A stretch of 64,000 nt of DNA from Alphaproteobacteria bacterium (GCA_965261735.1 OZ253470.1:1472001-1536000); one strand, 5' to 3'; shown: positions 22,766 through 48,869, counted from the first letter of the stretch. Numbers and translations are program-made. Notes: a model not told the origin generated them from the letters alone.

Positions 22766-23848
22766 CTAGTGGATTGATTCCAACGTTTGGAACCCTCTGT
22801 TTCGTGCGGCGATGATATGATCGGGGTCGGCTTTCCAGATGAAGGGTTTTGGGTTTGCGTCATTGTATTCGCGGACAAATCGGTTGATGGCGGCCTGAAG
22901 GTCGACGACGGATTGGAAGACGCCGTATTTGAGCCTGCGCCGCGTTAGTTTGGCGAAGAAGCCCTCGACGGCATTGAGCCACGAGCACGAGGTTGGCGTG
23001 AAGTGGAAGGTCCAGCGTGGATGGCGGGCGAGCCAGGCGCGGACCTTGTCCTTCTTGTGCGCGGCGTAGTTGTCGAGGATGACGTGGACGGCCTTGTCCG
23101 TCGGCACCTCGCGCTCGATGCGGTTGAGGAAGCGGATGAACTCCTGATGGCGGTGGCGCTGCATGTTCTGTGCGATGACCGTACCGTCCAGCACGTTGAG
23201 CGCGGCGAACAGCGTCGTCGTGCCATGCCGTTTGTAATCATAGGTCATCGTACCGGCGCGGCCCTTCTTCATCGGCAAGCCGGGTTGGGTGCGGTCGAGC
23301 GCCTGGATCTGTGATTTCTCATCAACCGACAGCACCACGGCATGGGCCGGCGGATCGACATACAAGCCGACGATATCTGTGAGCTTCTCGGCGAAGGCGG
23401 GATCATTGGAGAGCTTGAAGTGCCGCCAGCGGTGCGGGCTGAGGCCATGGGCCTTCCAGATCGCTTGGACCGTCGACGCCGCGACGCCAGCAACCTTCGC
23501 CATCGCGCGCAGCGTCCAGTGGGTCGCCTCGTGCGGCGGCGCTTGCTGGGTCAGGCGGACGATCTCGGCGACGCGCTCCGGCGGGATCGGCGCTTTGCTA
23601 GGCGGACGGGACCTGTCGCGAAGCAAGCCGTTGACACCCTCGTGCATGAACCGCTCCTGCCAGCGCCAGACACAGGTCTTGGACTTGCCGGTCTCGGCCA
23701 TGATCGACGAGTTCCCGAGCCCCTCGTCGCTCTTCAGGATGATCCGCGCCCGCCAGACATGTTTCTGCGAGCTCTTCGGGTCCGCGACGATAGCTTGCAA
23801 TCGCTGACGGTCGCCAGACGTGACAGTAAAATGGATGCCGGTGCGCAT
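22766..23848 (-). CDS. IS630-family transposase
   Basis: SVDEKSQIQAL, YKRHGTTTL, ILDNYAAH, SWLNAVE; the stop codon uses the target TA. Confidence 0.95.
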   Translation of the reverse strand: MRTGIHFTVTSGDRQRLQAIVADPKSSQKHVWRARIILKSDEGLGNSSIMAETGKSKTCVWRWQERFMHEGVNGLLRDRSRPPSKAPIPPERVAEIVRLTQQAPPHEATHWTLRAMAKVAGVAASTVQAIWKAHGLSPHRWRHFKLSNDPAFAEKLTDIVGLYVDPPAHAVVLSVDEKSQIQALDRTQPGLPMKKGRAGTMTYDYKRHGTTTLFAALNVLDGTVIAQNMQRHRHQEFIRFLNRIEREVPTDKAVHVILDNYAAHKKDKVRAWLARHPRWTFHFTPTSCSWLNAVEGFFAKLTRRRLKYGVFQSVVDLQAAINRFVREYNDANPKPFIWKADPDHIIAARNRGFQTLESIH

Positions 23849-23920
23849 AGCACAGACTCGCATGACACCGCACAATACGGAATCTCAAATCGGACTCTTT
23901 CGTTCCGATCAATCCACTAG
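22766..23920 (-). mobile_element. IS630-family element, copy 1 (coordinates include the CTAG target context)
   Basis: Ends CTAGTGGATTGAT / ATCAATCCACTAG; TA duplication within CTAG; near-identical to 43351-44505. Confidence 0.95.
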
Positions 23921-27465: not shown

Positions 27466-29538
27466 ATGACCCATCGCATCGGCATCGACGTCGGCGGCAC
27501 CTTCACCGATTTCCTCGTCATCGATGACGACGGCAGCAATTGGATTGGCAAATCGCCGACCACGCCGGCGAGCCCTTCCGAGGGTGTCTTTGCGGGCCTC
27601 GAGACGCTGGCGGGCGAGCGCGGCCGTACGCTGGCCCAGTTCCTCGCCGACACCCGGACCATCGTCCACGGCACCACCATCGCCACCAATGCCGTGCTAA
27701 CCGGCCGCGGCGCCAGAGTCGGGTTCGTCACCACCGAGGGCTTCCGCGACCTTCTCAATATGCGCCGTGGCCTCAGCGAGAGCCGCTACGACTGGAAGCG
27801 CAGCCCGCCACCGCCGCTGGTGCGGCGCCACCTCATCGCCCCGGTGCGCGAGCGCATCGACGTGGGCGGCGAGGTCGTCGTGGGCCTGAACGAGGACGAC
27901 GTGCGCGCGGCGGCGCGGCTGTTCCGCGACGAGGGAATCGAATCGGTCGCGGTTTCCTTCCTCTGGTCCTTCCTCAACCCGAGCCACGAGCAGCGTGCCG
28001 CCGAGATCCTGAGGGTCGAGCTCGGGGAGGTGTACCTATCGCTGTCGAGCGAAGTGCTGCCGCAGATCCGCGCCTACGAGCGCCACAGCACAACAGCGCT
28101 GAACGCACTGGTCGGCCCCACGCTGGCGCGCTATCTCGAGGCGTTACAGGGCGGCCTCACCGAGCGCGGCTTCGCCGGCACGCTGTTCATCATGCAGTCG
28201 AACGGCGGTGTCATGGCGCCCGAGGTGGCCACTCGCTTCGCCGTGAACACGCTGCTGTCGGGCCCCGCCGCGGGTCCGGTCGCAGGCATTCACTACGCCG
28301 GCGCGCACGGCTTCGACGACATCATCACGATCGACATGGGCGGAACAAGCTTCGATGTCGCGCTGGTGCGCGGCCGGGCGCCGAACACGACCACGGAGGC
28401 ACAGCTCGGCGGATACCACGTCGGCGTCCCCATGCTCGACATCCATACGGTGGGGGCCGGCGGCGGGTCCGTGGCCCGAGTTGACGCGGGCGGTATCCTG
28501 CATGTCGGGCCCGACAGCGCCGGCGCCGACCCCGGCCCGGCGTGCTACGGCCGGGGCGGCACGCAACCGACGGTGACCGACGCCGACCTCGTGCTCGGCT
28601 ATCTCGGACCGGACACCTTCGCCGGCGGCCAGCTCACTCTTGACGTCACCGCGGCCGAGCGCGCCATCCGTGAAGCGGTCGCCAACCCCCTCGGTATCGA
28701 CTTGATCGACGCGGCGCACGGCGTCTACCGTATCGCCAATACGGTGATGGCCGAGGCGGTGAAGGTGATGTCGGTGCAGCGCGGCGACGATCCGCGGAAC
28801 TTCGCCCTCATCGTGGCGGGCGGTGCGGGCCCGATTCACGCGGGCCCGATCGCCGGCGAGCTCGGTATCGAAACCCTCCTCATCCCGCGCGAGTCCTCCG
28901 TCTTCTGCGCCGCCGGCATGCTGTTATCCGATCTCAAGCATGCGTTCGTGCGCACCCATGCCGTCGAGCTGAGCGAGATCGACGCCGCGCGAGCGGGACA
29001 AATCCTCGATGAGATGCGGGCCGAGGCGCACGCGACCTTCGAGCGCGAGGGCGTCGCGCCCCATTCGGTGGCGCTGCGCTTCTCGGCCGAGCTGCGCTAT
29101 GTCGGGCAGTTCAACGAGGTCGAGGTCGAGGCCTTCGACGGCGGGATCGTCAACGCGGCGGCCATCGCCGATATGACCGCTGCGTTTCACCTGCGACATG
29201 ACACGCTTTTTGGCTACGCCATGGCGGACGCCGACGTCGAGCTCATCAACATCAGGCTCACCGCCTCGAGCGAAACGGCCAAGCCGTCCCTGCGCGCGCT
29301 GGCCGCGTCCGACGAAGATCCCGCGCACGCGTGCCGCACCCGCCGCGCCGCCTACTTCGAGGGCGGCTTCCGTGAGGTCGACGTCTTCGATGGATTGAAG
29401 CTCGCCGCCGGCAATCGCGTGCCGGGCCCGGCGATCGTCGAGCAGCCGACCACGACGATCGTCATCCCGCCCGCCTATGACATGATCTGCAACCGCTTCG
29501 GCAACTACATGATGAACGCCACGAGGCCCACGCCATGA
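27466..29538 (+). CDS. Hydantoinase/oxoprolinase subunit A
   Basis: IDVGGTFTD, HGTTIATNA, SGPAAG, DMGGTSFD, GAGGGS, SAGADPGPACY. Confidence 0.93.
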   Translation: MTHRIGIDVGGTFTDFLVIDDDGSNWIGKSPTTPASPSEGVFAGLETLAGERGRTLAQFLADTRTIVHGTTIATNAVLTGRGARVGFVTTEGFRDLLNMRRGLSESRYDWKRSPPPPLVRRHLIAPVRERIDVGGEVVVGLNEDDVRAAARLFRDEGIESVAVSFLWSFLNPSHEQRAAEILRVELGEVYLSLSSEVLPQIRAYERHSTTALNALVGPTLARYLEALQGGLTERGFAGTLFIMQSNGGVMAPEVATRFAVNTLLSGPAAGPVAGIHYAGAHGFDDIITIDMGGTSFDVALVRGRAPNTTTEAQLGGYHVGVPMLDIHTVGAGGGSVARVDAGGILHVGPDSAGADPGPACYGRGGTQPTVTDADLVLGYLGPDTFAGGQLTLDVTAAERAIREAVANPLGIDLIDAAHGVYRIANTVMAEAVKVMSVQRGDDPRNFALIVAGGAGPIHAGPIAGELGIETLLIPRESSVFCAAGMLLSDLKHAFVRTHAVELSEIDAARAGQILDEMRAEAHATFEREGVAPHSVALRFSAELRYVGQFNEVEVEAFDGGIVNAAAIADMTAAFHLRHDTLFGYAMADADVELINIRLTASSETAKPSLRALAASDEDPAHACRTRRAAYFEGGFREVDVFDGLKLAAGNRVPGPAIVEQPTTTIVIPPAYDMICNRFGNYMMNATRPTP

Positions 29539-31316
29539 TGCGCGACGACCCGCTCGCCAACACCAACGACGAGAGAATCAATCCGGTACTGGTCGCCGTT
29601 ATCGGCAACCGGTTCGATGCCGTCACGCGCGAGATGGGCGAGACCATGCTGCGCACGTCGCGCTCGCCGGTGTTCGCCGAGGCGCGCGATTTCGTCACCT
29701 CGTTGTTCGACGGCGACTGCGGCCTAATCGCCCAGACGCTCTACAACCCGGCTCTCTACGGCTCGACCCCGTTCGGGCAGCGGGCGATCGCCGACGCGTT
29801 CGTGGGCGACATCAACGAGGGCGACGTATTCATCCTCAACGATCCCTTTCGCGGCAACAACCACCCGCCCGACGTGAACATCTGCAAGCCCGTGTTCTGG
29901 AACGGCGGGCTCAAGTTCTGGGTCATGGCCAAGGGCCATCAGGCCGACATCGGCGGCGGCGGGGTCACGGGCTACAACCCGCTCGCCCGCGACGTGTGGG
30001 AGGAGGGCCTGCGCATCCCGCCGGCCAAGCTCGTCGACCGCGGCCGGCTGCGCCACGATTTGTGGGAGATGATCCTCATGAACGTGCGCCTCCGCTTCCT
30101 CGTCGAGGGCGACCTCTCCTGCCAGATGGGGGCGGCGACGCTCGGCGAGCGCGGCGTGCTCGCGCTCCTCGAGGAGTTCGGCGCGCCCGTGCTGGATGCC
30201 GCCGTCGCGGCGCTCAATACCGCGAGCGAACGGCAGATGCGGGCCGACATCGCAAACATTCCCGATGGCATCTACGAGGCCGAGCGCGAGATCGACCACA
30301 ACGGCTTCGCCCGCAACCGCATGCTGAAGGTCAAGGTCGCTATCACCGTCACGGGGGAGGACATCGCCTTCGACCTCGCCGGCAGCGACGACCAGGCGCT
30401 CGGCTTCATGAATAGCTCCTACGCCAACACCGTCGCCTCGGTCCACCAGGCCCTGTGCACCGCCATCAACTCGGGCGTGCGCTACAACGACGGCGCGGTG
30501 CGACCGATCGCGGTGAGCGCCCCCGCCGGCAGCATCGTCAACGCCAAAGAGCCCGCGGCGACCACGGGATGCACCGTGCCGACGCTGGAAGCGATCCAGG
30601 ATGCCGTGTGGCTCGCGCTGGCGGACGCGATCCCCGATCTCGTGCCGGCCGGCTGGGCGCGCTGGTACGCGCCGGCGACCGGTGGGCTCAACCCGCGCAC
30701 CGGGCGCCATTTCGCCGAGATCCACTTCATGGCCAAGGGCGGCGGCGGCGCCACGCGCGGCTATGACGGCTGGGACCATATCGCCCCGCCCGTCGCGCTC
30801 GGCGGCCTGCGTGCGCCCGATCCCGAGCTCCACGAGCTCGTCGATCCCTATCTCGTGCTCGAATGCCAGTACCTGCCGGACAGCGCCGGCGCCGGTGAAT
30901 GGCGCGGCGGTCTCGGCGTGCGCTATCGCTGGCGGGTGCTGGCCGACGACATCCGCCTCGCGAGCTTCGGCAGCGGCCTGCGCGATTCCACGGCGCCCTT
31001 CGGGCTCGCCGGCGGCCTGGGCGCGGCCCCCAACAGCGCCATCATCCATCGCGCCGACGGCACCAGCGAGGTGCTCGACACCAACGCCATGGGCACGCTC
31101 GGCGCCGGCGACGAGGTCGAGATCATCGCCACCGGCGGCGGCGGCTTCGGCGATCCGCGCCGCAGGCCGGTGGACAAGGTGCTGGCCGACGTGCGCGACG
31201 GCGTCGTGTCGGAGAAGCGTGCGCGCGAGGACTACGGCGTCATCATCGATCCCGAGAGCGGCGAGGTCGACGAGGCCGCCACGCGGGCGTCGCGGGCGTC
31301 GCGGGCGTCGACGTAG
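29535..31316 (+). CDS. Hydantoinase B/oxoprolinase subunit
   Basis: NDPFRGNNHPPD, HQADIGG, EGLRIPP, SAGAGEWRGG, GGGGFGDP. Confidence 0.93.
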   Translation: MMRDDPLANTNDERINPVLVAVIGNRFDAVTREMGETMLRTSRSPVFAEARDFVTSLFDGDCGLIAQTLYNPALYGSTPFGQRAIADAFVGDINEGDVFILNDPFRGNNHPPDVNICKPVFWNGGLKFWVMAKGHQADIGGGGVTGYNPLARDVWEEGLRIPPAKLVDRGRLRHDLWEMILMNVRLRFLVEGDLSCQMGAATLGERGVLALLEEFGAPVLDAAVAALNTASERQMRADIANIPDGIYEAEREIDHNGFARNRMLKVKVAITVTGEDIAFDLAGSDDQALGFMNSSYANTVASVHQALCTAINSGVRYNDGAVRPIAVSAPAGSIVNAKEPAATTGCTVPTLEAIQDAVWLALADAIPDLVPAGWARWYAPATGGLNPRTGRHFAEIHFMAKGGGGATRGYDGWDHIAPPVALGGLRAPDPELHELVDPYLVLECQYLPDSAGAGEWRGGLGVRYRWRVLADDIRLASFGSGLRDSTAPFGLAGGLGAAPNSAIIHRADGTSEVLDTNAMGTLGAGDEVEIIATGGGGFGDPRRRPVDKVLADVRDGVVSEKRAREDYGVIIDPESGEVDEAATRASRASRAST

Positions 31317-31893: not shown

Positions 31894-34155
31894 TCACGCC
31901 GCGGGCCGGAGGGCAACCTCGGCCTCGGCGCCGGTGCGCTCCGTGACACGGCCGATGATGTCGGCCCGCGCGCATCCGGCGGCCCGCAGGGCGGCCACAC
32001 AGGCGGCGGCGCGATTGCTAGGCACGCTCGCGAGCAGGCCGCCGGCCGTCTGCGGATCGAAGAGCAGGGGGTAGGACGGGTGGGTTTCGGCGCCCCTCAC
32101 ATCGAGCCGCAGCGAGGCCGCGAACGCCTCGTTCACCGGCTGTAGTGAGCTTGCGATCCCCGCCGCCATGAGTTCGCGCGCGCCATCGAGGACCGGCAAG
32201 CGGTCGAGATCGAGGGCGGCGTCGGCAGCGGAGGCGCGGAGCACCTCCAGCAGATGGCCGAGAAGGCCGAAACCGGTGACGTCGGTGCACGCCGTGGCGC
32301 CGTGGGCGACAACACACTCGGCGGCCGCCTTGTTGGAGGAGAGCATCGAGGCGAGCGCGCCTTCGACCGACCGGCTTGACGCCTCGGCCCGCATGTCGGC
32401 AGCGAAGATGGTGCCGGTGCCGAGCGCCTTGGTTAGGATCAGAGCGTCGCCCGGGCGCGCGCCTCGTTTACGCAGCAGCCGGGCCTCGTCGGCGAAGCCG
32501 TTAATCGAGAGCCCGAACGAGAGCTCCACGCTCTCGCTGGTGTGACCGCCGATCAGCGCCGCGCCGGCCTCGTTCAGCGTCTCGACCGCGCCGCTGAGCA
32601 CCTGATGCAGGTCGTGCTCGATCTTCGCCTCGGGCGCGAAGGGGAGCGAGATGAAGGCGAGCGCCGAGTGAGGCTCGGCGCCCATCGCGTAGATGTCGCC
32701 CAGGCAATGGTTCGCCGTCACCTGGCCGAACAGGAACGGATCGTCGATGAAGGCGCGGAAATGGTCAACCGTTTGCACCAGCACCTTGCCCGGCGGCGCG
32801 GCGACGATGGCGGCATCGTCGGCCGCTTCGATGCCCGCCAGCACACCATCGCGGGCGATCGGATCGAGGCGCTGCAGCGTACGCCGCAGGACCGCGCTCG
32901 CGACCTTCGCCCCGCAGCCGCCGCAGCGCATCGAGGCGTCCTCGAGCGCGCCGTTGCCGGCCGCCTGCTCGCCCATCTTGGGCAGCTTCTGGTAGCGGCC
33001 CATCCAGCGCCGGTCGATCCAGTTCTTGGCCTCCCACACCCAGCGCCCGCCGAACGCGATGGGGCCATAGGAGGCGACGGCGTAAGGGTAGCCGCTCGAG
33101 ATCAGCGCCAGCGTTCGCCGCTGTGGCTTGAAGCGCACCGGCGGCCTGTTCTCGAGCGTGCGGCGCAGCGAGCGCGCCAGCACCGGGCCCTGGCGTACGG
33201 CGTAAACACCGGACTTCGCGAGCGCCCGATCGGCGATCGAAGCGACGTTGCCGGCCGCGAACACCCGCGGATGCGAGGTCGATTCGAGCGTATCGCGCAC
33301 CCGAATAAACCCTGCGTCGTCGAGGTCGAGGCCCGTCGCCCGTAGCCACGGCGGTGCCGCGGCATGGGTGACCAGCGCCGCCGCATCGAAGGGCATATCG
33401 GCGGCGGAGTCGCACACCAACCGGCCCTCCTCGACGGCGACCACGTTATGCGCAAGATGAAGGTCGATCCCGCGCGCCTCGACCAATCCCTGCACCCTGC
33501 GGCGGGCGGCGGCACCGTGGCTGTCGAGGAACTGAGGCGAGCGCGAGACGATCGCGACCGACAGGCGGTCAGGGTCGCGGCCCTGGTCGCGGAGTAGCTC
33601 GTGCAACCGGTATTGCAGCGAAAACGCGACCTCCGCTCCACCTGCACCGCCCCCGATGACGACGACGCGGAACACACCTTCTCCCGCGAGCAGCGCCTCC
33701 TCGACGCCGCGCCAGCGGGCCAGGAACGTCTCCACGGGGCGCACCGGAATGGCGCGCTCGGCGCCCGCGATACCGGCACTGCTCGGTACCGACCCGATGT
33801 CGATGGAGAGGACGTCGAAGGGCACCGGCGGGCGCCCGTCGCAATGGACGAGGCGGCCTTCGAGATCGAGGCCGGTCGCGCCCGCATGGTACAGCCGGGC
33901 TTGTGCGAAGCGGCACAACTTGCGCAGATCGATGTGGCTGGCGGCGTGATCGTAGCGCCCCGCAAGCACGCCGGGCAGCATGCCGGTGTAGGGCGTATCG
34001 GCATCGCGCGAGACGAGCGTGAGCCGGGTCCCTGCTTGCGGCCGCATCCCGAATCGCCTGAGCACGGCGACGTGGCTGTGGCCGCCGCCGAGGAGGACGA
34101 GGTCGCGGGCGACCGGCGTGGCGCGGGCCGCCGCCCCGTTGTTGCGTGCGAACAT
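31894..34155 (-). CDS. selD: Selenide,water dikinase fused to an N-terminal FAD/NAD(P)H oxidoreductase domain
   Basis: N-part LLGGGHSH, GGGAGG, KSGVYAVRQG. C-part MRCGGCGAKV, DDAA, QTVDHF, DIYAMG, GGHT, TDVTGFGLLGH, DPQTAGGLL. Start set at 34155 because the longer ORF runs through the tRNA. Confidence 0.95.
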   Translation of the reverse strand: MFARNNGAAARATPVARDLVLLGGGHSHVAVLRRFGMRPQAGTRLTLVSRDADTPYTGMLPGVLAGRYDHAASHIDLRKLCRFAQARLYHAGATGLDLEGRLVHCDGRPPVPFDVLSIDIGSVPSSAGIAGAERAIPVRPVETFLARWRGVEEALLAGEGVFRVVVIGGGAGGAEVAFSLQYRLHELLRDQGRDPDRLSVAIVSRSPQFLDSHGAAARRRVQGLVEARGIDLHLAHNVVAVEEGRLVCDSAADMPFDAAALVTHAAAPPWLRATGLDLDDAGFIRVRDTLESTSHPRVFAAGNVASIADRALAKSGVYAVRQGPVLARSLRRTLENRPPVRFKPQRRTLALISSGYPYAVASYGPIAFGGRWVWEAKNWIDRRWMGRYQKLPKMGEQAAGNGALEDASMRCGGCGAKVASAVLRRTLQRLDPIARDGVLAGIEAADDAAIVAAPPGKVLVQTVDHFRAFIDDPFLFGQVTANHCLGDIYAMGAEPHSALAFISLPFAPEAKIEHDLHQVLSGAVETLNEAGAALIGGHTSESVELSFGLSINGFADEARLLRKRGARPGDALILTKALGTGTIFAADMRAEASSRSVEGALASMLSSNKAAAECVVAHGATACTDVTGFGLLGHLLEVLRASAADAALDLDRLPVLDGARELMAAGIASSLQPVNEAFAASLRLDVRGAETHPSYPLLFDPQTAGGLLASVPSNRAAACVAALRAAGCARADIIGRVTERTGAEAEVALRPAA

Positions 34156-34219
34156 GGAGCGAAGAATAGGACAGGCCCGCGGGCCCGTGCACGCCTTTAG
34201 GCGGGCTTCGAGGCAATCG

Positions 34220-34315
34220 TGGCGGAAGAGGGTGGGAGTCGAACCCACCAGGGACGCCTGGCGCCCCTCACCGGATTTGAAGTCCGAGCGCCCCACCGGG
34301 GTGCGATCCTCCTCC
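34220..34315 (-). tRNA. selC: tRNA-Sec (anticodon UCA)
   Basis: 96 nt; 8-bp acceptor stem GGAGGAGG/CCUCUUCC, GACUUCAAAUC anticodon arm, long variable arm, GUUCGACUC, GCCA end. Confidence 0.97.
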
Positions 34316-34325
34316 ACGCACGCGA

Positions 34326-34354
34326 ACCGTAGGACGACGCGAAGCGGCCTTCAA
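34326..34354 (-). promoter_or_regulatory. Putative sigma70 promoter for selC-selD
   Basis: Minus strand TTGAAG-17 bp-TACGGT about 10 nt before the tRNA 5' end. Confidence 0.55.
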
Positions 34355-34409
34355 GCGGATGGCGCTGGATACAATAGGCCGCCTCGTGGGCGGCGCTAAC
34401 GAGGTTGGC

Positions 34410-35201
34410 TTAGGAAACGACCGCTTCGGTGGCCTGGGTCTCGTCGTCCCACACCTTTTCCGGCATCGGCAGGCCGGCGAAGGCGGCGTCGGTGAGGGGC
34501 TCGATGGGCTCGATACCGAGTTTGCCGAGGATCATCATGAGCTGGCGCACATGCTGGCCGGAATGCCAGGTGCAGCGCTCCAGGAACTCGTGCTGCGTCT
34601 GTGCCCCGTAATAGGTGGCGATGCTGGCCTCGCCGGAACGGTCGCGGCAGTTGGCCCACCACGATTTAAGCCGTTGGCGCACCTCGTCGGCATAGAGCGC
34701 GATCTGCTCGCTCGTCTGGCGCGATTCGGGTGGCGGACTGATCAGCGTGTCGTAGGTGACCTCGGCGCCGTCGGCCGCCGCTTCCACGAAGACCTCGTGG
34801 ATCCTCGCAATATGGTGCACGAGGTCGCGATAGGAGCGCTCGCGGTCGGGCAACAGCGTGCCGAGCTGATCGTCGGGAAGCTGTCGAGTAAAGCGCGCCA
34901 GGGCGGCGAGAATGATGTCGACCCGCTCCACCAGCTCGCCGGGAGACAGCTCGGGCTTGCCCGAGTACTCAATGCCGACGAAGTCGGCGATTTCGCGCAG
35001 GACCAAGCCCTGCACGTACTGTTCGCCGCGCGAGACGACCGGAACCGTCTTGATCCCGAGGCGCAACAGTTCCGCCACCCCTTCGGGATTATTGACGACG
35101 TTTATGGATTCGTACTCAACCCCACGGGCTGACAGGAACTCTTTGGCCCTGAGACAGCTCGTTCACCCGGGTTGCCAGAAGACCTTGATCGCTTCCGCCA
35201 T
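34410..35201 (-). CDS. Predicted selenoprotein: glutaredoxin-like domain (U-T-S-C) fused to a DinB-superfamily domain, 263 aa
   Basis: ATG 35201 gives MAEAIKVFWQPG-[TGA 35163-65]-TSCLRAKEFLSARGVEYESINV, in frame with ORF 34410..35078. TVPVV cis-Pro motif; DinB histidines LVHHIA and WHSGQH. Adjacent to selC/selD. Confidence 0.9.
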
Positions 35202-35279
35202 CACGCTCGCTCCGGCTCAATTTCTGCCGATCATTATGGGACAAAGCGGCACCCCGCACAACTGGGCATCAGGCCCGAG

Positions 35280-36164
35280 CTATTGCGGCACTCGCGCGCG
35301 CGGCACCAGCTGGTGGCCGATGGCCCGCGCCTCCTTGTCGGCGCTGGCCAGAAAGGCCGCGCGCAGAGCGATCAGCACCCGCGCGGCGATCGTCTCTTCC
35401 CAGAACCAGTCCGCGAGCTGCCGGCTCGAGGGATACGGGGTGTTTGAACCCGCGGCTTCGGTATAGAAGGCGCGGAGGTCATCGGCGGCGAACCGTAGCA
35501 CCTGACCGGCCGATAGGCCGGGCTGGGGGCTCGCCGGGGCCCGCCCGGCCATGAAGGCGCCGAGGTAGGTGACGATCTCGCTGATCGCGAGCCCGCCCGG
35601 GCCCATCGTCGTACGCCCACTTGCCGCGACGGCGCGCCGATGCCAGGGCCCGATGTTCCGCACCTCGCTTTCGAGCGCCGCGTGCAAGCCCTCGGCGTCC
35701 GTCGGTGGCTCGTCGGTGGGGTCGAGCGCGATCGGGCTTACCCAGCCCTCGATACCCGCATCACCCGGCGCGTTCATGTCGAAATCGACATGCACGACCG
35801 GACCTCGCGGCGCCTCCAATAGGCCAAGCGCCTCGCGAAGCACGCGCATCTGGAAAGCGGCGTCACCGGGCGCACCGAAGGGACGGCCCAGCTCGAACGG
35901 AACCCACAACGCCCTCGGTGGTTTCATCGTGACCGAGTGGGGCCGCACCAGGCTGATCAGCGTCGTCGCCAGCCCTTCCTCTTCGAAATAATGGGCGAGC
36001 CCGCACACGGCGCGCGTGCAGTCCGGTCAGACGGGGACCAGCAGGACCGCATCGACGCCCTCGCGCTTCATGTCGCCCGCGAGCTCGCGCGCATCGGCTT
36101 CTATGTACCGAGGGTCGGTCGCACCCATATAGGAATAGTGGGTCGCCGCAAGCCCGCCGATCAC
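35280..36164 (-). CDS. Predicted GrdB/PrdB-like selenoprotein (U-P-D-C) with a C-terminal extension; 5' end missing
   Basis: VIGGLAATHYSYMGATDP...EGVDAVLLVPV-[TGA 36027-29]-PDCTRAVCGLAHYFEEEGLATT...PPRALWVPFELGRPFGAPGD in one continuous frame. Confidence 0.85.
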
Positions 36165-37328
36165 CTCGCCACCGATGCGGAGGCGGCGGTGCAAGCGGCG
36201 GCCGAGGCGCTGGCCGCTGCCGAGGCGGCGGCGCAACTCACGGCCGAAGCCGAAGCCGCGGCCCTCGCGGCGGCCGAGGCGGCGGCAGCCTTGACCGCGC
36301 AGGCGGAGGCCGCCACGACCGAGGCGGAAGCGGCGGCCGAAGTGGCGGCGATCCTGACGGCCGAAGCCGAAGCGGCCGCGGTCGAGGCGGCAGCGGCCAC
36401 GTTGGTTGCCGCCGAGGCGCAGGAGGAAGCCAACGACGCGGCGCTCGCGGGGGCTGCCGCGGAAGCGACGGCAGAAGCGGCGGCGGCCTTGACCGCCGAG
36501 GCCGAAGCCGCCGCGGCGATCGCGGAAGGGGCCGAGCAAGACGCCGCCGATGCGCTAACCAACGCCGAAGCGGCAGCGACCGCCGACCCCACCGACGCCG
36601 CGTTGGCTGAGATCGCGGCAGCGACGGCGGCCGAAGCGGAAGCGACCGCACTCGCGGCGGCGGAGACGCAGGCCGCGGCGGAAGCGGCGGCCCTCGCCGC
36701 GACCGAGGCTGAGAACACGGCTCTGGCCTCGGCGGAAGCGCAGGCCACCGCCGAGGCGGCGGCTCAAGCGGCGGCCGTGGCCCAGGCCGCAGCCGCGGCC
36801 GATCCTGAGGACGACGTCCTCGCCGAGTCGGCGACACTCGCAGCGACCGAGGCGGAGGCGGCCGCATTGGCGGCGGCCGAGACGCTGGCCGCGGCCGCGG
36901 CCGAGTCGGCGGCGCTCACGGCGGCGGAGACGCAAACTGCGGCCGACGCGGCAGCCCAGGCGGCGGCCGAGGCGCAAGCCGCGGCGGCAGCCGATCCCGA
37001 GGACAGCGTGCTGGGCGAGGCGGCCGTGCTGGCAGCCGCCGAGGCGAAGGCCGCGGCTCTGGCGGCCGCCGAAGCCCAAGCGGCGGCCGAGTCGGCGGCG
37101 CGGGCGGCAGCCGAGGCGGAAGCCGCGGTCGCGGATTCCGAAACCGCCCTTACCGAGGTAGCGACGGTTGTCACCGAATCCACAACGGCCGCGGCAACGG
37201 CGATCACGAGCGCGGCCACCGGCGAGCTCACCGCAGAGGTCATCGCCGAGGTCAACAGCCTGCTCGGGCTCGAAGACGTCGACGCGGGCGTGATTGACGC
37301 GATCCTGCTCCGCGACAGTCCGGACTAG
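36165..37328 (+). CDS. Ala/Glu-rich repetitive coiled-coil-like protein; 5' end missing
   Basis: About 385 codons of AEA-type repeats with three ADP(T/E)D-xxLxE units (near 36582, 36798, 36991); C-terminal ELTAEVIAEVNSLLGL. No credible start after the junction. Confidence 0.7.
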   Translation, partial: LATDAEAAVQAAAEALAAAEAAAQLTAEAEAAALAAAEAAAALTAQAEAATTEAEAAAEVAAILTAEAEAAAVEAAAATLVAAEAQEEANDAALAGAAAEATAEAAAALTAEAEAAAAIAEGAEQDAADALTNAEAAATADPTDAALAEIAAATAAEAEATALAAAETQAAAEAAALAATEAENTALASAEAQATAEAAAQAAAVAQAAAAADPEDDVLAESATLAATEAEAAALAAAETLAAAAAESAALTAAETQTAADAAAQAAAEAQAAAAADPEDSVLGEAAVLAAAEAKAAALAAAEAQAAAESAARAAAEAEAAVADSETALTEVATVVTESTTAAATAITSAATGELTAEVIAEVNSLLGLEDVDAGVIDAILLRDSPD

Positions 37329-46006: not shown

Positions 46007-47017
46007 TCAAGCGGCCGACAGGGAATCGCCGTAGAGAGATCGGTAGCTCGGCATGTCGCCGAGGCTCTCCGCGGCAAGGACGGCGCGGCCGATGGAGCGG
46101 GCCACGCAATCGGCGGCCATCATGCCGAGCCGGCCGAGCAGCGAGAAATCGCCCGCCGGCGGCACCAGCCGGCCGGTCGAGACGACGAACAGGGTGTCGC
46201 CGTCGAAGGGTGTGTGAACGGGCCGCACCGCGCGCCCGATGCCGTCATGGGCCATGATCGCGACGCGCCCGGCTTGCGCCTTGTCGAGCGCGACGTTGGT
46301 CGCGACCACGCCGATCGTGGTGTGGCCGCCGAGCGGGGAGGCGAAGGCGTAGTCACGATCGCCCGCGGCGATGGGGCCGGGCGTCGGCTGGCCCCCGAGC
46401 TCGCCGTCCTGTTCGAAGGCCCAGGCCCACAGGGTCGGCGAACCTGGCATGGTGACCGAGCCGAAGGGATTGGCGGCGACCAGAGCGCCCGCCTGCACGC
46501 CGTCCTCGCTTACGGCCGAGGCGCTGCCGAGCCCACCCTTCAGCGCGCCCGCACGAGCGCCGAGGCCGGCACCGGCGTTGCCGAGGGCGAAATCGGTACT
46601 GACGGACTCGCACGCCTGCGCCGCGAGACCACGGTAGGGCGGCTCTCGCCACTCCTTGGCACCGCCGTTCAACAGATCGAACAGGATCGCCGCCGGGACG
46701 ATGGGCACCCGCACCGGGCCGACCGCGAATCCCCGCCCGCGCTCGGCGAGCCAGGCACACGCGCCGGCGGCGGCGTCGAGCCCGAACGCGGAGCCGCCGC
46801 TCAGCACCACAGCATCGACCCGGTCAACATGGCAGGTAGGATCGAGGGCGTCGGTCTCGCGCGTACCCGGCGCGCCGCCCCTGACGTCGACGCCCGCGGT
46901 TACCGGTGCGTCCGGGAGCACTACGGTGACGCCGGTGCGCGCGGCGGTATCCTCGGCGTTGCCGACCCGTATCCCTTCGACGTCGGTGATGAGGTTGCGT
47001 GGGCCCGAGCGGATCAC
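46007..47017 (-). CDS. P1/S58 (DmpA-like) aminopeptidase
   Basis: ITDVEGIRVG, DVRGGAPGTRETD, GGSAFGL, TTIGVVATN, HTPFDGD. Confidence 0.92.
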   Translation of the reverse strand: MIRSGPRNLITDVEGIRVGNAEDTAARTGVTVVLPDAPVTAGVDVRGGAPGTRETDALDPTCHVDRVDAVVLSGGSAFGLDAAAGACAWLAERGRGFAVGPVRVPIVPAAILFDLLNGGAKEWREPPYRGLAAQACESVSTDFALGNAGAGLGARAGALKGGLGSASAVSEDGVQAGALVAANPFGSVTMPGSPTLWAWAFEQDGELGGQPTPGPIAAGDRDYAFASPLGGHTTIGVVATNVALDKAQAGRVAIMAHDGIGRAVRPVHTPFDGDTLFVVSTGRLVPPAGDFSLLGRLGMMAADCVARSIGRAVLAAESLGDMPSYRSLYGDSLSAA

Positions 47018-47171
47018 GGCACGGTTTGCCTCGCAGGCGTCGCCATGGCGCCCAGAAGCTAGCCCGCGCCGCGGCACCGGTCAACGCCGGCCCGGGGCTC
47101 TGCCGCGGCGTTTGCCACAAAACGGCGCACCTGGAACAATGAGGTGCCGAGCGTCACGGGGAGCACGCGCC

Positions 47172-48869
47172 ATGTACATCATAGGCCTTCGGGAGCGCGC
47201 CGCGGTGTGCGTGCGTACTATCCTGGCAGCGCTGCTTCTGGCGCTCGTGCCCCTGGCGTCCCACGCCGCGGAACCGGCCCGGGCGGCGCGGGCCGGCCTC
47301 GACATCCTGCGCGCGGGCGGCAGCGCCGCCGACGCTGCGATCGCCGTACAGATGGTGCTCAACGTCGTCGAGCCGCAATCGTCGGGCATCGGCGGCGGCG
47401 CCTTCCTGCTCTACTACGACGCCGCGCGGCGCGAGGTCCGTGCCTATGACGGCCGCGAGACCGCGCCGGCGGCGGCGACCGAGGCCCTGTTCCTCGATGC
47501 GAGCGGCAAGCCGCTGCATTTCTGGGACGCGGTCGTCGGCGGCCGCTCGGTCGGGGTTCCCGGCGTGGTCGCGATGCTCGAGCTCGCCCACAAGGCGCAC
47601 GGCAGGCTCGCCTGGCGCGAGCTGTTCGCGCCCGCCATCGCCATCGCCGATGACGGCTTCGCCATCTCGCCGCGCCTGCACGCGCTGGTCGGCCGGGACA
47701 AGTTCCTGCGTACCTTCGTGCTCGCGCGCGAGATGTTCCATCGCGCCAACGGCACGCCCAAGCCGGTCGGCACTTGGCTCACCAACCCGAGGCTCGCCGA
47801 CAGCTTGCGCGCGATCGCGGCGGACGGTGGCCGCGCCTCCTACGAGGGCGACATCGCGCGCGATATCGTCGGCGCGGTGCGCGGCGCGGCCCGCAACCCG
47901 GGAAGCCTAAGCGCCGCCGACCTCGCCGCCTACCGCGCCAAAGAACGCGCGCCGGTGTGCCTCGCCTATCGCGAGTGGCGGGTGTGCGGCATGCCGCCGC
48001 CGACCTCGGGCGGCATCACGGTACTGCAAATCCTCGACATCCTGAGCCACTTCGAGTCGGCCGCGCTGGCGCCTGGGTCGGCGCGAGCGGTGCATCTCAT
48101 CTCCGAAGCGAGCCGCCTCGCCTTCGCCGACCGCGGCCGCTACCTCGCCGACGCCGATTTCGTCGAGGTGCCGGTCTCCGGCCTGCTCGATGCTACGTAC
48201 CTGCGGACGCGCGCACGGCTCATCGATCCGGCACGCAGCATGGGGCTCGCCGCACCTGGTACCCCGGGGGTCAAGAAGGGCCGGCTCGCGGCCCCCGACC
48301 AGTCGGCGGAGCAGCCCTCGACGACCCACTTCAGCGTGGTCGACGGCGACGGCAACGCCGTCGTGATGACGTCGAGCATCGAGAGCGCCTTCGGCTCGCG
48401 GCTCATGACCGAGGGCGGCTTCCTGCTCAACAACCAGCTCACCGACTTCTCGTTCGTCGCCGAGCGCGACGGTGCGCCCGTCGCCAACCGTGTCGCCGCC
48501 GGTAAACGGCCGCGCAGCTCGATGGCGCCGACGCTCGTGTTCGACGCCGCGGGCAACCTGGTCATGGCGATCGGCTCGCCCGGCGGCAGCCGCATCATCC
48601 CTTACGTCGTCAAGACCATCGTCGCGGTGCTCGACGGCGGGCTCGACATCCAGGCCGCCATCGACCTGCCCCACCACAGCCACCGCAACGGGACCACCGA
48701 CCTCGAGGGGGGAACCGCGGTGGCGGTGCACAAGGGCGCGCTCGAGGATCTCGGGCACAAGGTCGCGGTGCGCGGCCTCAACAGCGGCCTGCACGGCATC
48801 GTGGTCTCGCCCGAGGGGCTCCGCGCCGGAGCCGACCCGCGCCGCGAGGGCGTCGCCCTCGGTGACTGA
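47172..48869 (+). CDS. ggt: Gamma-glutamyltransferase
   Basis: EPQSSGIGGG, DGRETAP, STTHFSVVD nucleophile, NNQLTDF, RPRSSMAP, GSPGG. Confidence 0.93.
   Translation: MYIIGLRERAAVCVRTILAALLLALVPLASHAAEPARAARAGLDILRAGGSAADAAIAVQMVLNVVEPQSSGIGGGAFLLYYDAARREVRAYDGRETAPAAATEALFLDASGKPLHFWDAVVGGRSVGVPGVVAMLELAHKAHGRLAWRELFAPAIAIADDGFAISPRLHALVGRDKFLRTFVLAREMFHRANGTPKPVGTWLTNPRLADSLRAIAADGGRASYEGDIARDIVGAVRGAARNPGSLSAADLAAYRAKERAPVCLAYREWRVCGMPPPTSGGITVLQILDILSHFESAALAPGSARAVHLISEASRLAFADRGRYLADADFVEVPVSGLLDATYLRTRARLIDPARSMGLAAPGTPGVKKGRLAAPDQSAEQPSTTHFSVVDGDGNAVVMTSSIESAFGSRLMTEGGFLLNNQLTDFSFVAERDGAPVANRVAAGKRPRSSMAPTLVFDAAGNLVMAIGSPGGSRIIPYVVKTIVAVLDGGLDIQAAIDLPHHSHRNGTTDLEGGTAVAVHKGALEDLGHKVAVRGLNSGLHGIVVSPEGLRAGADPRREGVALGD

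Follow-up and report, generated by a model that had tools for sequence, protein, structure and literature searches.

A selenium locus of an alphaproteobacterium with tRNA-Sec, a SelD fusion gene, a probable glutaredoxin-DinB selenoprotein gene and a 5'-truncated PrdB-like gene

Here, we describe a compact selenium locus in a 64,000-nucleotide (nt) stretch of DNA from an alphaproteobacterium (Alphaproteobacteria bacterium, GCA_965261735.1 OZ253470.1:1472001-1536000), hereafter the window, within which positions are counted from its first letter. The genome, designated G000, is a single contig of 5.03 Mb, in which the window is G000:C1:1472001-1536000. Read 5' to 3' on the minus strand, the locus contains a gene related to PrdB and GrdB, a gene that joins a glutaredoxin domain to a DinB domain (Grx-DinB), the tRNA gene for selenocysteine (Sec) and a gene in which an oxidoreductase is fused to SelD, the selenide, water dikinase; we argue below that these genes probably form a Sec-trait island in which one of two selenoprotein genes has decayed. 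The order and coordinates of the four co-oriented genes had been proposed in a preliminary description of the sequence and are borne out by gene, tRNA and domain calls, as is its observation that both in-frame UGA codons occupy the first position of a UxxC motif, where open reading frames (ORFs) called with table 11 are split by the TGA in both genes. The features on which the argument depends are the following.

35280..~36170, minus strand: PrdB/GrdB-like gene, 5'-truncated, aligned with residues ~107-400 of full-length family members, frame from GTG 36164
36027..36029, minus strand: in-frame UGA of the PrdB-like gene, motif VPV-U-PDC
35999..36015, minus strand: SECIS-like hairpin of the PrdB-like gene, 12 nt 3' of the UGA codon, 5 of 7 pairs formed in the window
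34410..35201, minus strand: Grx-DinB gene, 263 codons, PF00462 and PF12867, motif U13-T-S-C16
35163..35165, minus strand: in-frame UGA (Sec13) of Grx-DinB, motif FWQPG-U-TSC
35116..35132, minus strand: SECIS-like hairpin of Grx-DinB, UCAGCCC-GUG-GGGUUGA, 31 nt 3' of the UGA codon, 7 of 7 pairs formed in the window
34220..34315, minus strand: selC, tRNA-Sec with anticodon UCA, found by ARAGORN and by Rfam RF01852 at 75.7 bits (gathering score 47)
31894..34155, minus strand: Ndh-SelD fusion gene, 753 amino acids (aa), matching TIGR03169, TIGR00476, PF07992, PF00586 and PF02769

That the two UGAs encode Sec is best seen by comparison with relatives. For the PrdB-like gene, all 80 of the best loci, taken from 341 relatives among genome contigs (numbered with L), have TGA at the UxxC codon, inside a conserved PV-U-PxCTRA. 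Carriers were counted in an even sample of the class comprising 401 genomes (numbered with G), where orthologs scoring >420 bits occur in 30 genomes, 25 of them with one in-frame TGA and five with Cys; selA, found in 55 genomes of this sample, accompanies the Sec form in 22 of 25 genomes vs the Cys form in one of five. A protein-database search returned 2303 matches at E <= 0.001, and 119 of the 120 best listed are proteins of 232-267 aa called to begin just past the UGA, the sole full-length match among them (P0017, 418 aa) having Cys at the U column (CPHC). Grx-DinB behaves similarly: 23 genomes of the sample of 401 have it, an in-frame TGA being present in 17 and absent from six, and in 20 alphaproteobacterial loci the Sec13 codon is TGA in 16 and TGC or TGT in four, always within FWQPx[U/C]TSCLR. 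The flanks are equal in the U and C forms, with (I/V)(K/R)VFWQPx before and TSCLRxKE(F/Y)L after, and in all orthologs of both genes protein conservation extends upstream of the UGA. Both genes thus show U/C alternation at the UGA column and conservation on either side of it, the check that had been suggested for them, and judged from these sequences both UGAs are very likely Sec codons.

Short, G+C-rich hairpins that are topped by C-GUG-G and resemble the selenocysteine insertion sequence (SECIS) recur 3' of both codons. That of Grx-DinB has the family form UCGGUCC-GUG-GGAUCGA at positions 34-50 from the UGA; across the 17 Sec forms of alignment A4, which leaves out L133, a Sec form with FWHPG-U, 95.8% of cells are paired and three of the seven pairs are compensatory (two of the three resting on the window's own changes), and the covariation score was reached by 0 of 500 shuffles. 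The four Cys-form genes have unrelated sequence at the same position. The PrdB-like hairpin has the consensus GCGCGCC-GUG-GGCGCGC at positions 15-31 from the UGA, with 91.4% of cells paired and three of seven pairs compensatory over 83 distinct sequences (alignment A3); again 0 of 500 shuffles attain the score, and slid-partner controls pair at 31-61%. The sequences behind these counts are related and constrained by coding, and the covariation is a strong hint, not proof, of SECIS elements. When single sequences 3' of each UGA were folded, their energies did not improve on those of shuffles (z -0.76 to +0.55), and Rfam returned no SECIS family match in the region at E <= 1. If the hairpins act in this way, SelB-GTP-Sec-tRNA(Sec) would bind them and insert Sec at the UGAs.

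The machinery required is encoded by this genome, with its parts in two places. The Ndh-SelD protein consists of a pyridine-nucleotide-disulfide-oxidoreductase-like domain (residues ~18-388) followed by SelD (~409-748), and scores 414 bits with TIGR03169 (cut-off 310) and 295 bits with TIGR00476, the selD model (cut-off 125), and 478 with TIGR04369 'fusion_not_SelD', which is under that model's cut-off of 700. Its translated active site, CGGCGAK, is of the Cys-type CxxC kind, and it is the genome's only selD above cut-off. The earlier observation that selA and selB are not in the window holds, as their sole over-cut-off matches lie at G000:C1:4566981-4570256; the two genes stand side by side there (4,566,981-4,570,256), ~3 Mb from selC and selD, and a search for them elsewhere in the genome thus completes the set of selA, selB, selC and selD. 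No selU was found in the genome search. Ndh-SelD fusions with CxxC were described by Zhang and Gladyshev in 2008 (PMC2398784), where they make up ~40% of the Cys-type SelDs of the Global Ocean Sampling (GOS) data, and the role of the domain fused to SelD is called 'not fully clear'. The window protein shares with those fusions an NADH-dehydrogenase-like FAD domain N-terminal to a Cys-type CxxC SelD and, as far as the available text describes them, shows no notable difference; it is an ordinary member of an already described form.

The second gene of the locus, Grx-DinB, is intact. Its product matches PF00462 Glutaredoxin with 45.4 bits (cut-off 22.9) over residues 5-61, a match that spans the UGA, and PF12867 DinB_2 with 33.1 bits (cut-off 24.8), giving an architecture in which an N-terminal glutaredoxin/NrdH-like domain (also matched by TIGR02194) precedes a C-terminal four-helix domain of the DinB/YfiT kind. 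Invariant across 34 aligned sequences are P54, the cis-Pro, together with H130, H213, H217, H204, E208 and R209; H130, H213 and H217 form what we take to be the His-triad pattern of DinB proteins. An AlphaFold2 model (mean predicted local distance difference test, pLDDT, 91.6) was compared with known structures by Foldseek, where the C-terminal domain resembles DR0053 (6iz2, TM-score TMt 0.83-0.84) and YfiT (1rxq, TMt 0.62-0.65) and the N-terminal domain resembles thioredoxin-like BC3987 (3zit, TMt 0.90). The protein therefore joins two known kinds of domain and differs from each of its relatives by the other. With the DinB/YfiT-fold metal-dependent thiol transferases (YfiT 1rxq, DR0053 6iz2, YizA 2qe9) it shares the four-helix fold (TMt 0.62-0.84) and the His triad, but it has an additional N-terminal Sec/Cys glutaredoxin domain. 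With the glutaredoxin, NrdH-like and UXX-star selenoproteins, which are listed in the table of a 2026 review (PMC13188914), it has in common a domain of the Trx fold that bears UxxC close to the N-terminus, and the DinB fusion sets it apart from these families as they are described there, as does a score of 40.5 bits with the Uxx-star model NF041212, under the cut-off of 66. In the available text of the same review 'DinB' has 0 occurrences, and the first part of its table has no Grx-DinB row; our literature searches turned up no paper in which a Grx-DinB selenoprotein is named.

Proteins of the DinB type are thiol S-transferases. The intact Grx-DinB is most likely a thiol-dependent metalloenzyme in which the Sec/Cys glutaredoxin domain would serve the predicted His-triad site of the DinB domain, and it probably uses glutathione. 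Contigs of a metatranscriptome (RNA-library) run match the gene, including across the UGA (34897-35198), which is an expression hint only and perhaps DNA carry-over. Its neighbours at 22 loci are too weak a guide to use, the commonest being a short-chain dehydrogenase/reductase (SDR) at only five, followed by a SerA-like protein at four and a glutathione S-transferase at three. Grx-DinB is a selenoprotein architecture unnamed in the literature searched, occurring mostly in the Sec form in Alphaproteobacteria (17 of 23), and since databases show mostly shortened calls or Cys forms, annotation pipelines appear to miss the Sec form.

The first gene of the locus belongs to a family of ~400 aa proteins that is related to PrdB and GrdB at a distance. 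Against TIGR04483 (PrdB, cut-off 300) the window copy scores 43.7 bits and full-length relatives 110-128; against TIGR01918 (cut-off 65.45) the values are 21.2 and 42-47 bits. The Pfam family GRDB (PF07355, cut-off 22) is matched by full-length relatives at 34-40 bits through residues that the window copy mostly lacks, and the window copy itself has no Pfam family match. Scores below the equivalog cut-offs mark the family as a distant branch of the GRDB superfamily and not, by NCBI thresholds, a subunit of D-proline or glycine reductase. Homology to clostridial PrdB and to GrdB, GrdF and GrdH is seen about the Sec site, with TIGR04483 positions 25-232 aligning to residues 32-238 of the relatives and the UxxC in the same place; the family differs in an extra helical C-terminal domain of ~160 aa, in its alphaproteobacterial hosts and in scores far under the cut-offs. 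Clostridial Stickland hosts are anaerobic fermenters, whereas the hosts of the PrdB-like family are mostly aerobic. A sequence search of the PDB found nothing (best E 0.67), Foldseek found nothing at E <= 0.001, and VIA-align gave only generic matches to Rossmann, periplasmic-binding-protein and SDR-like folds (Z 7-9, residues 32-241), by which the helical C-terminal domain is barely covered.

The preliminary description had called the system non-Stickland. Neither G000 nor five carrier genomes gave a match to PF09338 (PrdA/GrdE) or to PF04723 (GrdA), and with both profiles silent in control genomes too this is a weak negative without a positive control. FdhA-like matches occur at 3.07 and 1.32 Mb of the genome, none of them with an internal stop. 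Around the 80 best PrdB-like loci no neighbour cluster recurs in more than 16, and those are all of one clade. With no Stickland partner found (by profiles without a positive control) and no conserved neighbour, 'non-Stickland' is a reasonable term for the family, which is widespread, almost always Sec-containing and without a conserved partner gene.

A 'proline reductase PrdB' with UxxC and pfam07355 has been reported from the sea, with 42 genes in the Sargasso Sea data and, in GOS, 235 forms with Sec and 110 with Cys (PMC1088965, PMC2398784). The available texts of both papers contain 'PrdA' 0 times, and the missing partner is accordingly not discussed in them. The marine proteins, as described there, share with the window family the UxxC, the GRDB match, the prevalence of Sec and an abundance in aerobic aquatic bacteria, and differ from the window copy in that the latter is truncated and lacks a Pfam match. 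We infer that the two are one family, an equation made by description, not sequence. On that footing, the marine 'PrdB' would not be a Stickland enzyme and would stand unusually often beside sel genes, which offers a handle on a 20-year-old orphan that counts among the commonest selenoprotein families of ocean metagenomes. Its carriers include the cultured Reyranella (L051). Within the family, tandem paralogs occur at L031, L033, L035, L045 and L082, each with its own TGA and hairpin and with Sec sites ~1.2 kb apart. More remote PrdB-like genes make up a second tier (~107-150 bits, profile positions ~20-260), also mostly TGA-containing, which occurs in many alphaproteobacterial genomes, with up to three or four copies per genome (G015, G325, G317).

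The preliminary description had also taken both genes as hidden UxxC selenoproteins. Both UGAs do look like Sec codons, but the PrdB-like gene is without its first ~106 codons. The window copy aligns with full-length relatives from residue ~107 only (43% identity to P0017 over residues 109-396), and it matches the family profile at positions 107-400, where every other ortholog in the 30 carrier genomes begins at 1-15. Searched by tblastn against the entire genome, the N-terminal 105-109 residues of four relatives matched nothing (best E 0.05). Gone with them are the motifs RRVA(L/I)xSTAGL, DYRxIP and HxSxNxDRxGF (alignments A5 and A7) and the invariant or near-invariant residues F55, R63, H78, S80, N82, D84, G87 and R100. 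In an AlphaFold model of a full-length relative (pLDDT 89.6, predicted template modelling score 0.87, from a 44-row alignment) an alpha/beta domain spans residues ~30-235 and a helical domain 263-398, and four strands of the alpha/beta domain (38-43, 47-49, 62-66 and 74-76) fall in the lost part. Candidate starts for what remains are GTG 36164 and ATG 36128, the latter being the family's conserved internal Met.

The homology stops at ~36161-36170, where a further feature takes over.

36168..37147, no strand assigned: Ala/Glu-rich imperfect repeat array, starting exactly where the PrdB-like homology ends

The array, of degenerate units with periods of 12-54 nt, is contained in a plus-strand ORF (35937-37328, possible GTG start at 36138) that is Ala/Glu/Thr-rich, acidic, of low complexity and without a Pfam family; an analysis of GC content at third codon positions could not tell the strand of the region. 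Its length is polymorphic across contigs of other runs, with a 72-nt skip, a 192-nt skip and a 30-nt insertion. Contigs of runs X3 and X6, from two other studies, extend from 34282 over 36194 into the repeat, there 72 nt shorter, and because they cross the same junction the truncation is not an assembly artefact. The gene also looks damaged in G001, where it is split into two frames, and in G039, which has an extra TAG. RNA-library contigs are absent from 35241-36157, which is no evidence of silence, and a scan of metagenome contigs for close relatives of the window copy found none above 52% identity. No other copy in the 30 carrier genomes is truncated, and the one here is probably a remnant; most likely, its first ~106 codons were lost to a rearrangement that left the Ala-rich array in place, and what is left is non-functional.

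How the PrdB-like and Grx-DinB genes relate to the Sec machinery and to each other can be judged from their positions in other genomes. A PrdB-like gene lies 131-217 nt from selA in four genomes (G385, G266, G201, G158) and 2-7 kb from it in five more (G194, G065, G039, G139, G010), and beside sel genes in 10 of 30 carrier genomes when G000, with selC and selD, is included. Among the 80 best PrdB-like loci, a SelD fusion is found within 10 kb in three (L030, L059, L086) and plain SelD and/or tRNA-Sec in three more. At L073, from a Hyphomicrobiaceae metagenome-assembled genome, PrdB-like and Grx-DinB genes, both with U, are followed by selA, selB and tRNA-Sec on one strand, this Grx-DinB being only 43% identical to that of the window; in G065, Grx-DinB, PrdB-like, tRNA-Sec, selB and selA all fall within 10 kb. 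Over the 55 selA-positive genomes, 22 have a Sec-type PrdB-like gene, 15 a Sec-type Grx-DinB gene and 11 both, vs 6.0 expected (Fisher test, p = 0.004, uncorrected for phylogeny). At 18 of 20 Grx-DinB loci, by comparison, there is no sel or PrdB-like gene within ~10 kb, and one more has only selA, 8 kb off. A tblastx comparison of the family-level relative G001 with the window matched only the two client genes and showed no synteny.

Taken together, we read the locus as a Sec-trait island, made up of selC, the only selD and two client genes, one of them a remnant, in which the clients have been inherited or moved with the Sec machinery and are not shown to form one pathway; we would give this reading a probability of about two in three. 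A precedent for sel genes that carry a client is found in PMC5029168, where sel genes and the client fdhA lie in single operons; the likeness lies in a client selenoprotein gene travelling with sel genes, and the differences from the clusters described there are that the clients here are PrdB-like and Grx-DinB and that the machinery is split, with selC and selD here and selA and selB 3 Mb off. Several observations weigh against it. The gene order at L073 and the excess co-occurrence are better explained by a shared function than by co-inheritance alone. In run X10, of a different study, a contig of 2593 nt matches 34287-36164 with five differences in 1878 nt and continues with 715 nt that were not placed on the window; since it departs exactly at 36164, another allele may exist in nature. 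The remnant, moreover, retains the UGA, the larger part of the SECIS-like hairpin and a 294-codon open frame, and could still be translated from GTG 36164.

The strongest rival, to our minds unlikely, is close to what the preliminary description had proposed, namely that the PrdB-like and Grx-DinB proteins constitute a two-selenoprotein, non-Stickland system for reduction or detoxification, co-regulated with Ndh-SelD and selC and decaying here, in which Grx-DinB would act on the Se-S centre of its PrdB-like partner, either re-reducing it or supplying it with substrate. In the preliminary description Grx-DinB was possibly the electron relay and the flavin domain of SelD would feed reduced selenium, both of which are speculative. 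That proposal survives in so far as the order PrdB-like(U), Grx-DinB(U), selA, selB, selC at L073, with a Grx-DinB as far removed as 43% identity, the grouping of all the genes within 10 kb in G065 and the 11 genomes with both Sec forms against the 6.0 expected (the phylogenetically uncorrected Fisher test above) are what it predicts, but it sits badly with the isolation of 18 of 20 Grx-DinB loci. A PrdB-like gene is within ~10 kb of Grx-DinB in just one of those 20, and a Grx-DinB gene within 10 kb of just one of the 80 best PrdB-like loci; the two lie far apart or on separate contigs in G001, G010 and G015, and Sec-type Grx-DinB is missing from 13 of the 25 genomes with Sec-type PrdB-like. 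With its PrdB-like copy 5'-truncated, this genome in any case cannot run the module as it was drawn.

Other accounts are less probable still. The shortened PrdB-like gene might remain functional as a ~290-aa selenoprotein, starting at GTG 36164 or ATG 36128 and keeping the UxxC and the helical domain, a proposal that draws on the retained frame, UGA and 5 of 7 hairpin pairs, on the same arrangement in contigs of other studies and on a 99%-identical cluster of six members (P0004). We think it improbable: the protein would be without four strands from the core of its alpha/beta domain and without the (near-)invariant N-terminal residues, no second such copy exists in the 30 carrier genomes, ATG 36128 is the conserved internal Met of the family and a high-GC genome retains open frames by chance. 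A doubtful idea about the family as a whole is that the PrdB-like protein, with Grx-DinB as an occasional partner, takes part in selenium handling as a Se-S or Se-C reductase that frees reduced selenium or delivers it to Ndh-SelD; if true, such a role would explain why the gene stands beside selA, selB, selC or selD in 10 of 30 carriers without any other conserved neighbour. That the UGAs are plain stops and the true genes are the ORFs of 222 aa and 242 aa annotated downstream of them, as gene callers have it, is scarcely credible given amino-acid conservation upstream of both UGAs in all orthologs, Cys in place of U in the Cys forms, a Glutaredoxin match (residues 5-61) that spans the Grx-DinB UGA, covarying hairpins 3' of both codons and full Sec machinery in the genome.

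Under the Sec-trait-island reading, one client selenoprotein gene decays in a genome that retains the Sec trait for its other clients, a small natural example of selenoproteome turnover. Further users of the trait were sought by a genome-wide read-through scan, which covered UxxC and CxxU motifs only, with composition filters, and is not a full selenoproteome. Two candidates emerged.

G000:C1:926368-927048, plus strand: candidate Prx-like selenoprotein; PF00578 AhpC/TSA at 63.8 bits, residues 76-197, spans the TGA in GHW-U-PYC
G000:C1:3574224-3575891, plus strand: candidate UGSC-family selenoprotein; PF24696 at 160 bits, residues 7-172, spans the TGA in AD-U-GSC

With these candidates elsewhere, the Sec machinery would not be kept for this locus alone. 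They are two of 28 read-through candidates beyond the locus; in the other 26, Pfam matches lay only downstream of the UGA or were absent. The locus overturns nothing in current understanding: SelD fusions and PrdB-like proteins are both of known kinds, and what is modestly new is Grx-DinB and the recurrent association of PrdB-like genes with sel genes.

Two insertion-sequence copies flank the locus.

22766..23920, minus strand: IS630-like element copy 1, 1155 nt, with a DDE_3 transposase of 369 aa
43351..44505, plus strand: IS630-like element copy 2, 1155 nt, 100% identical to copy 1 and inverted

The pair brackets 19,430 nt that include the selenium locus, hydantoinase genes, a tRNA-Arg and a flagellin gene; it is composite-transposon-like or inversion-prone and fits a recently rearranged region. 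A promoter and terminator scan gave nothing exceeding shuffle expectation. In the Pfam search of the window, the flanks hold hydantoinase/oxoprolinase A and B, a cyclase-domain ORF, a GNAT protein and an EamA transporter, along with the tRNA-Arg, and these genes are unrelated to Stickland chemistry. Immediately downstream of selD, and on the other strand, stands the hydantoinase/oxoprolinase A/B pair (27466-31313); another HyuB paralog is found outside the window at G000:C1:3656736-3658826, and a gamma-glutamyltranspeptidase gene lies at 46656-48866 of the window.

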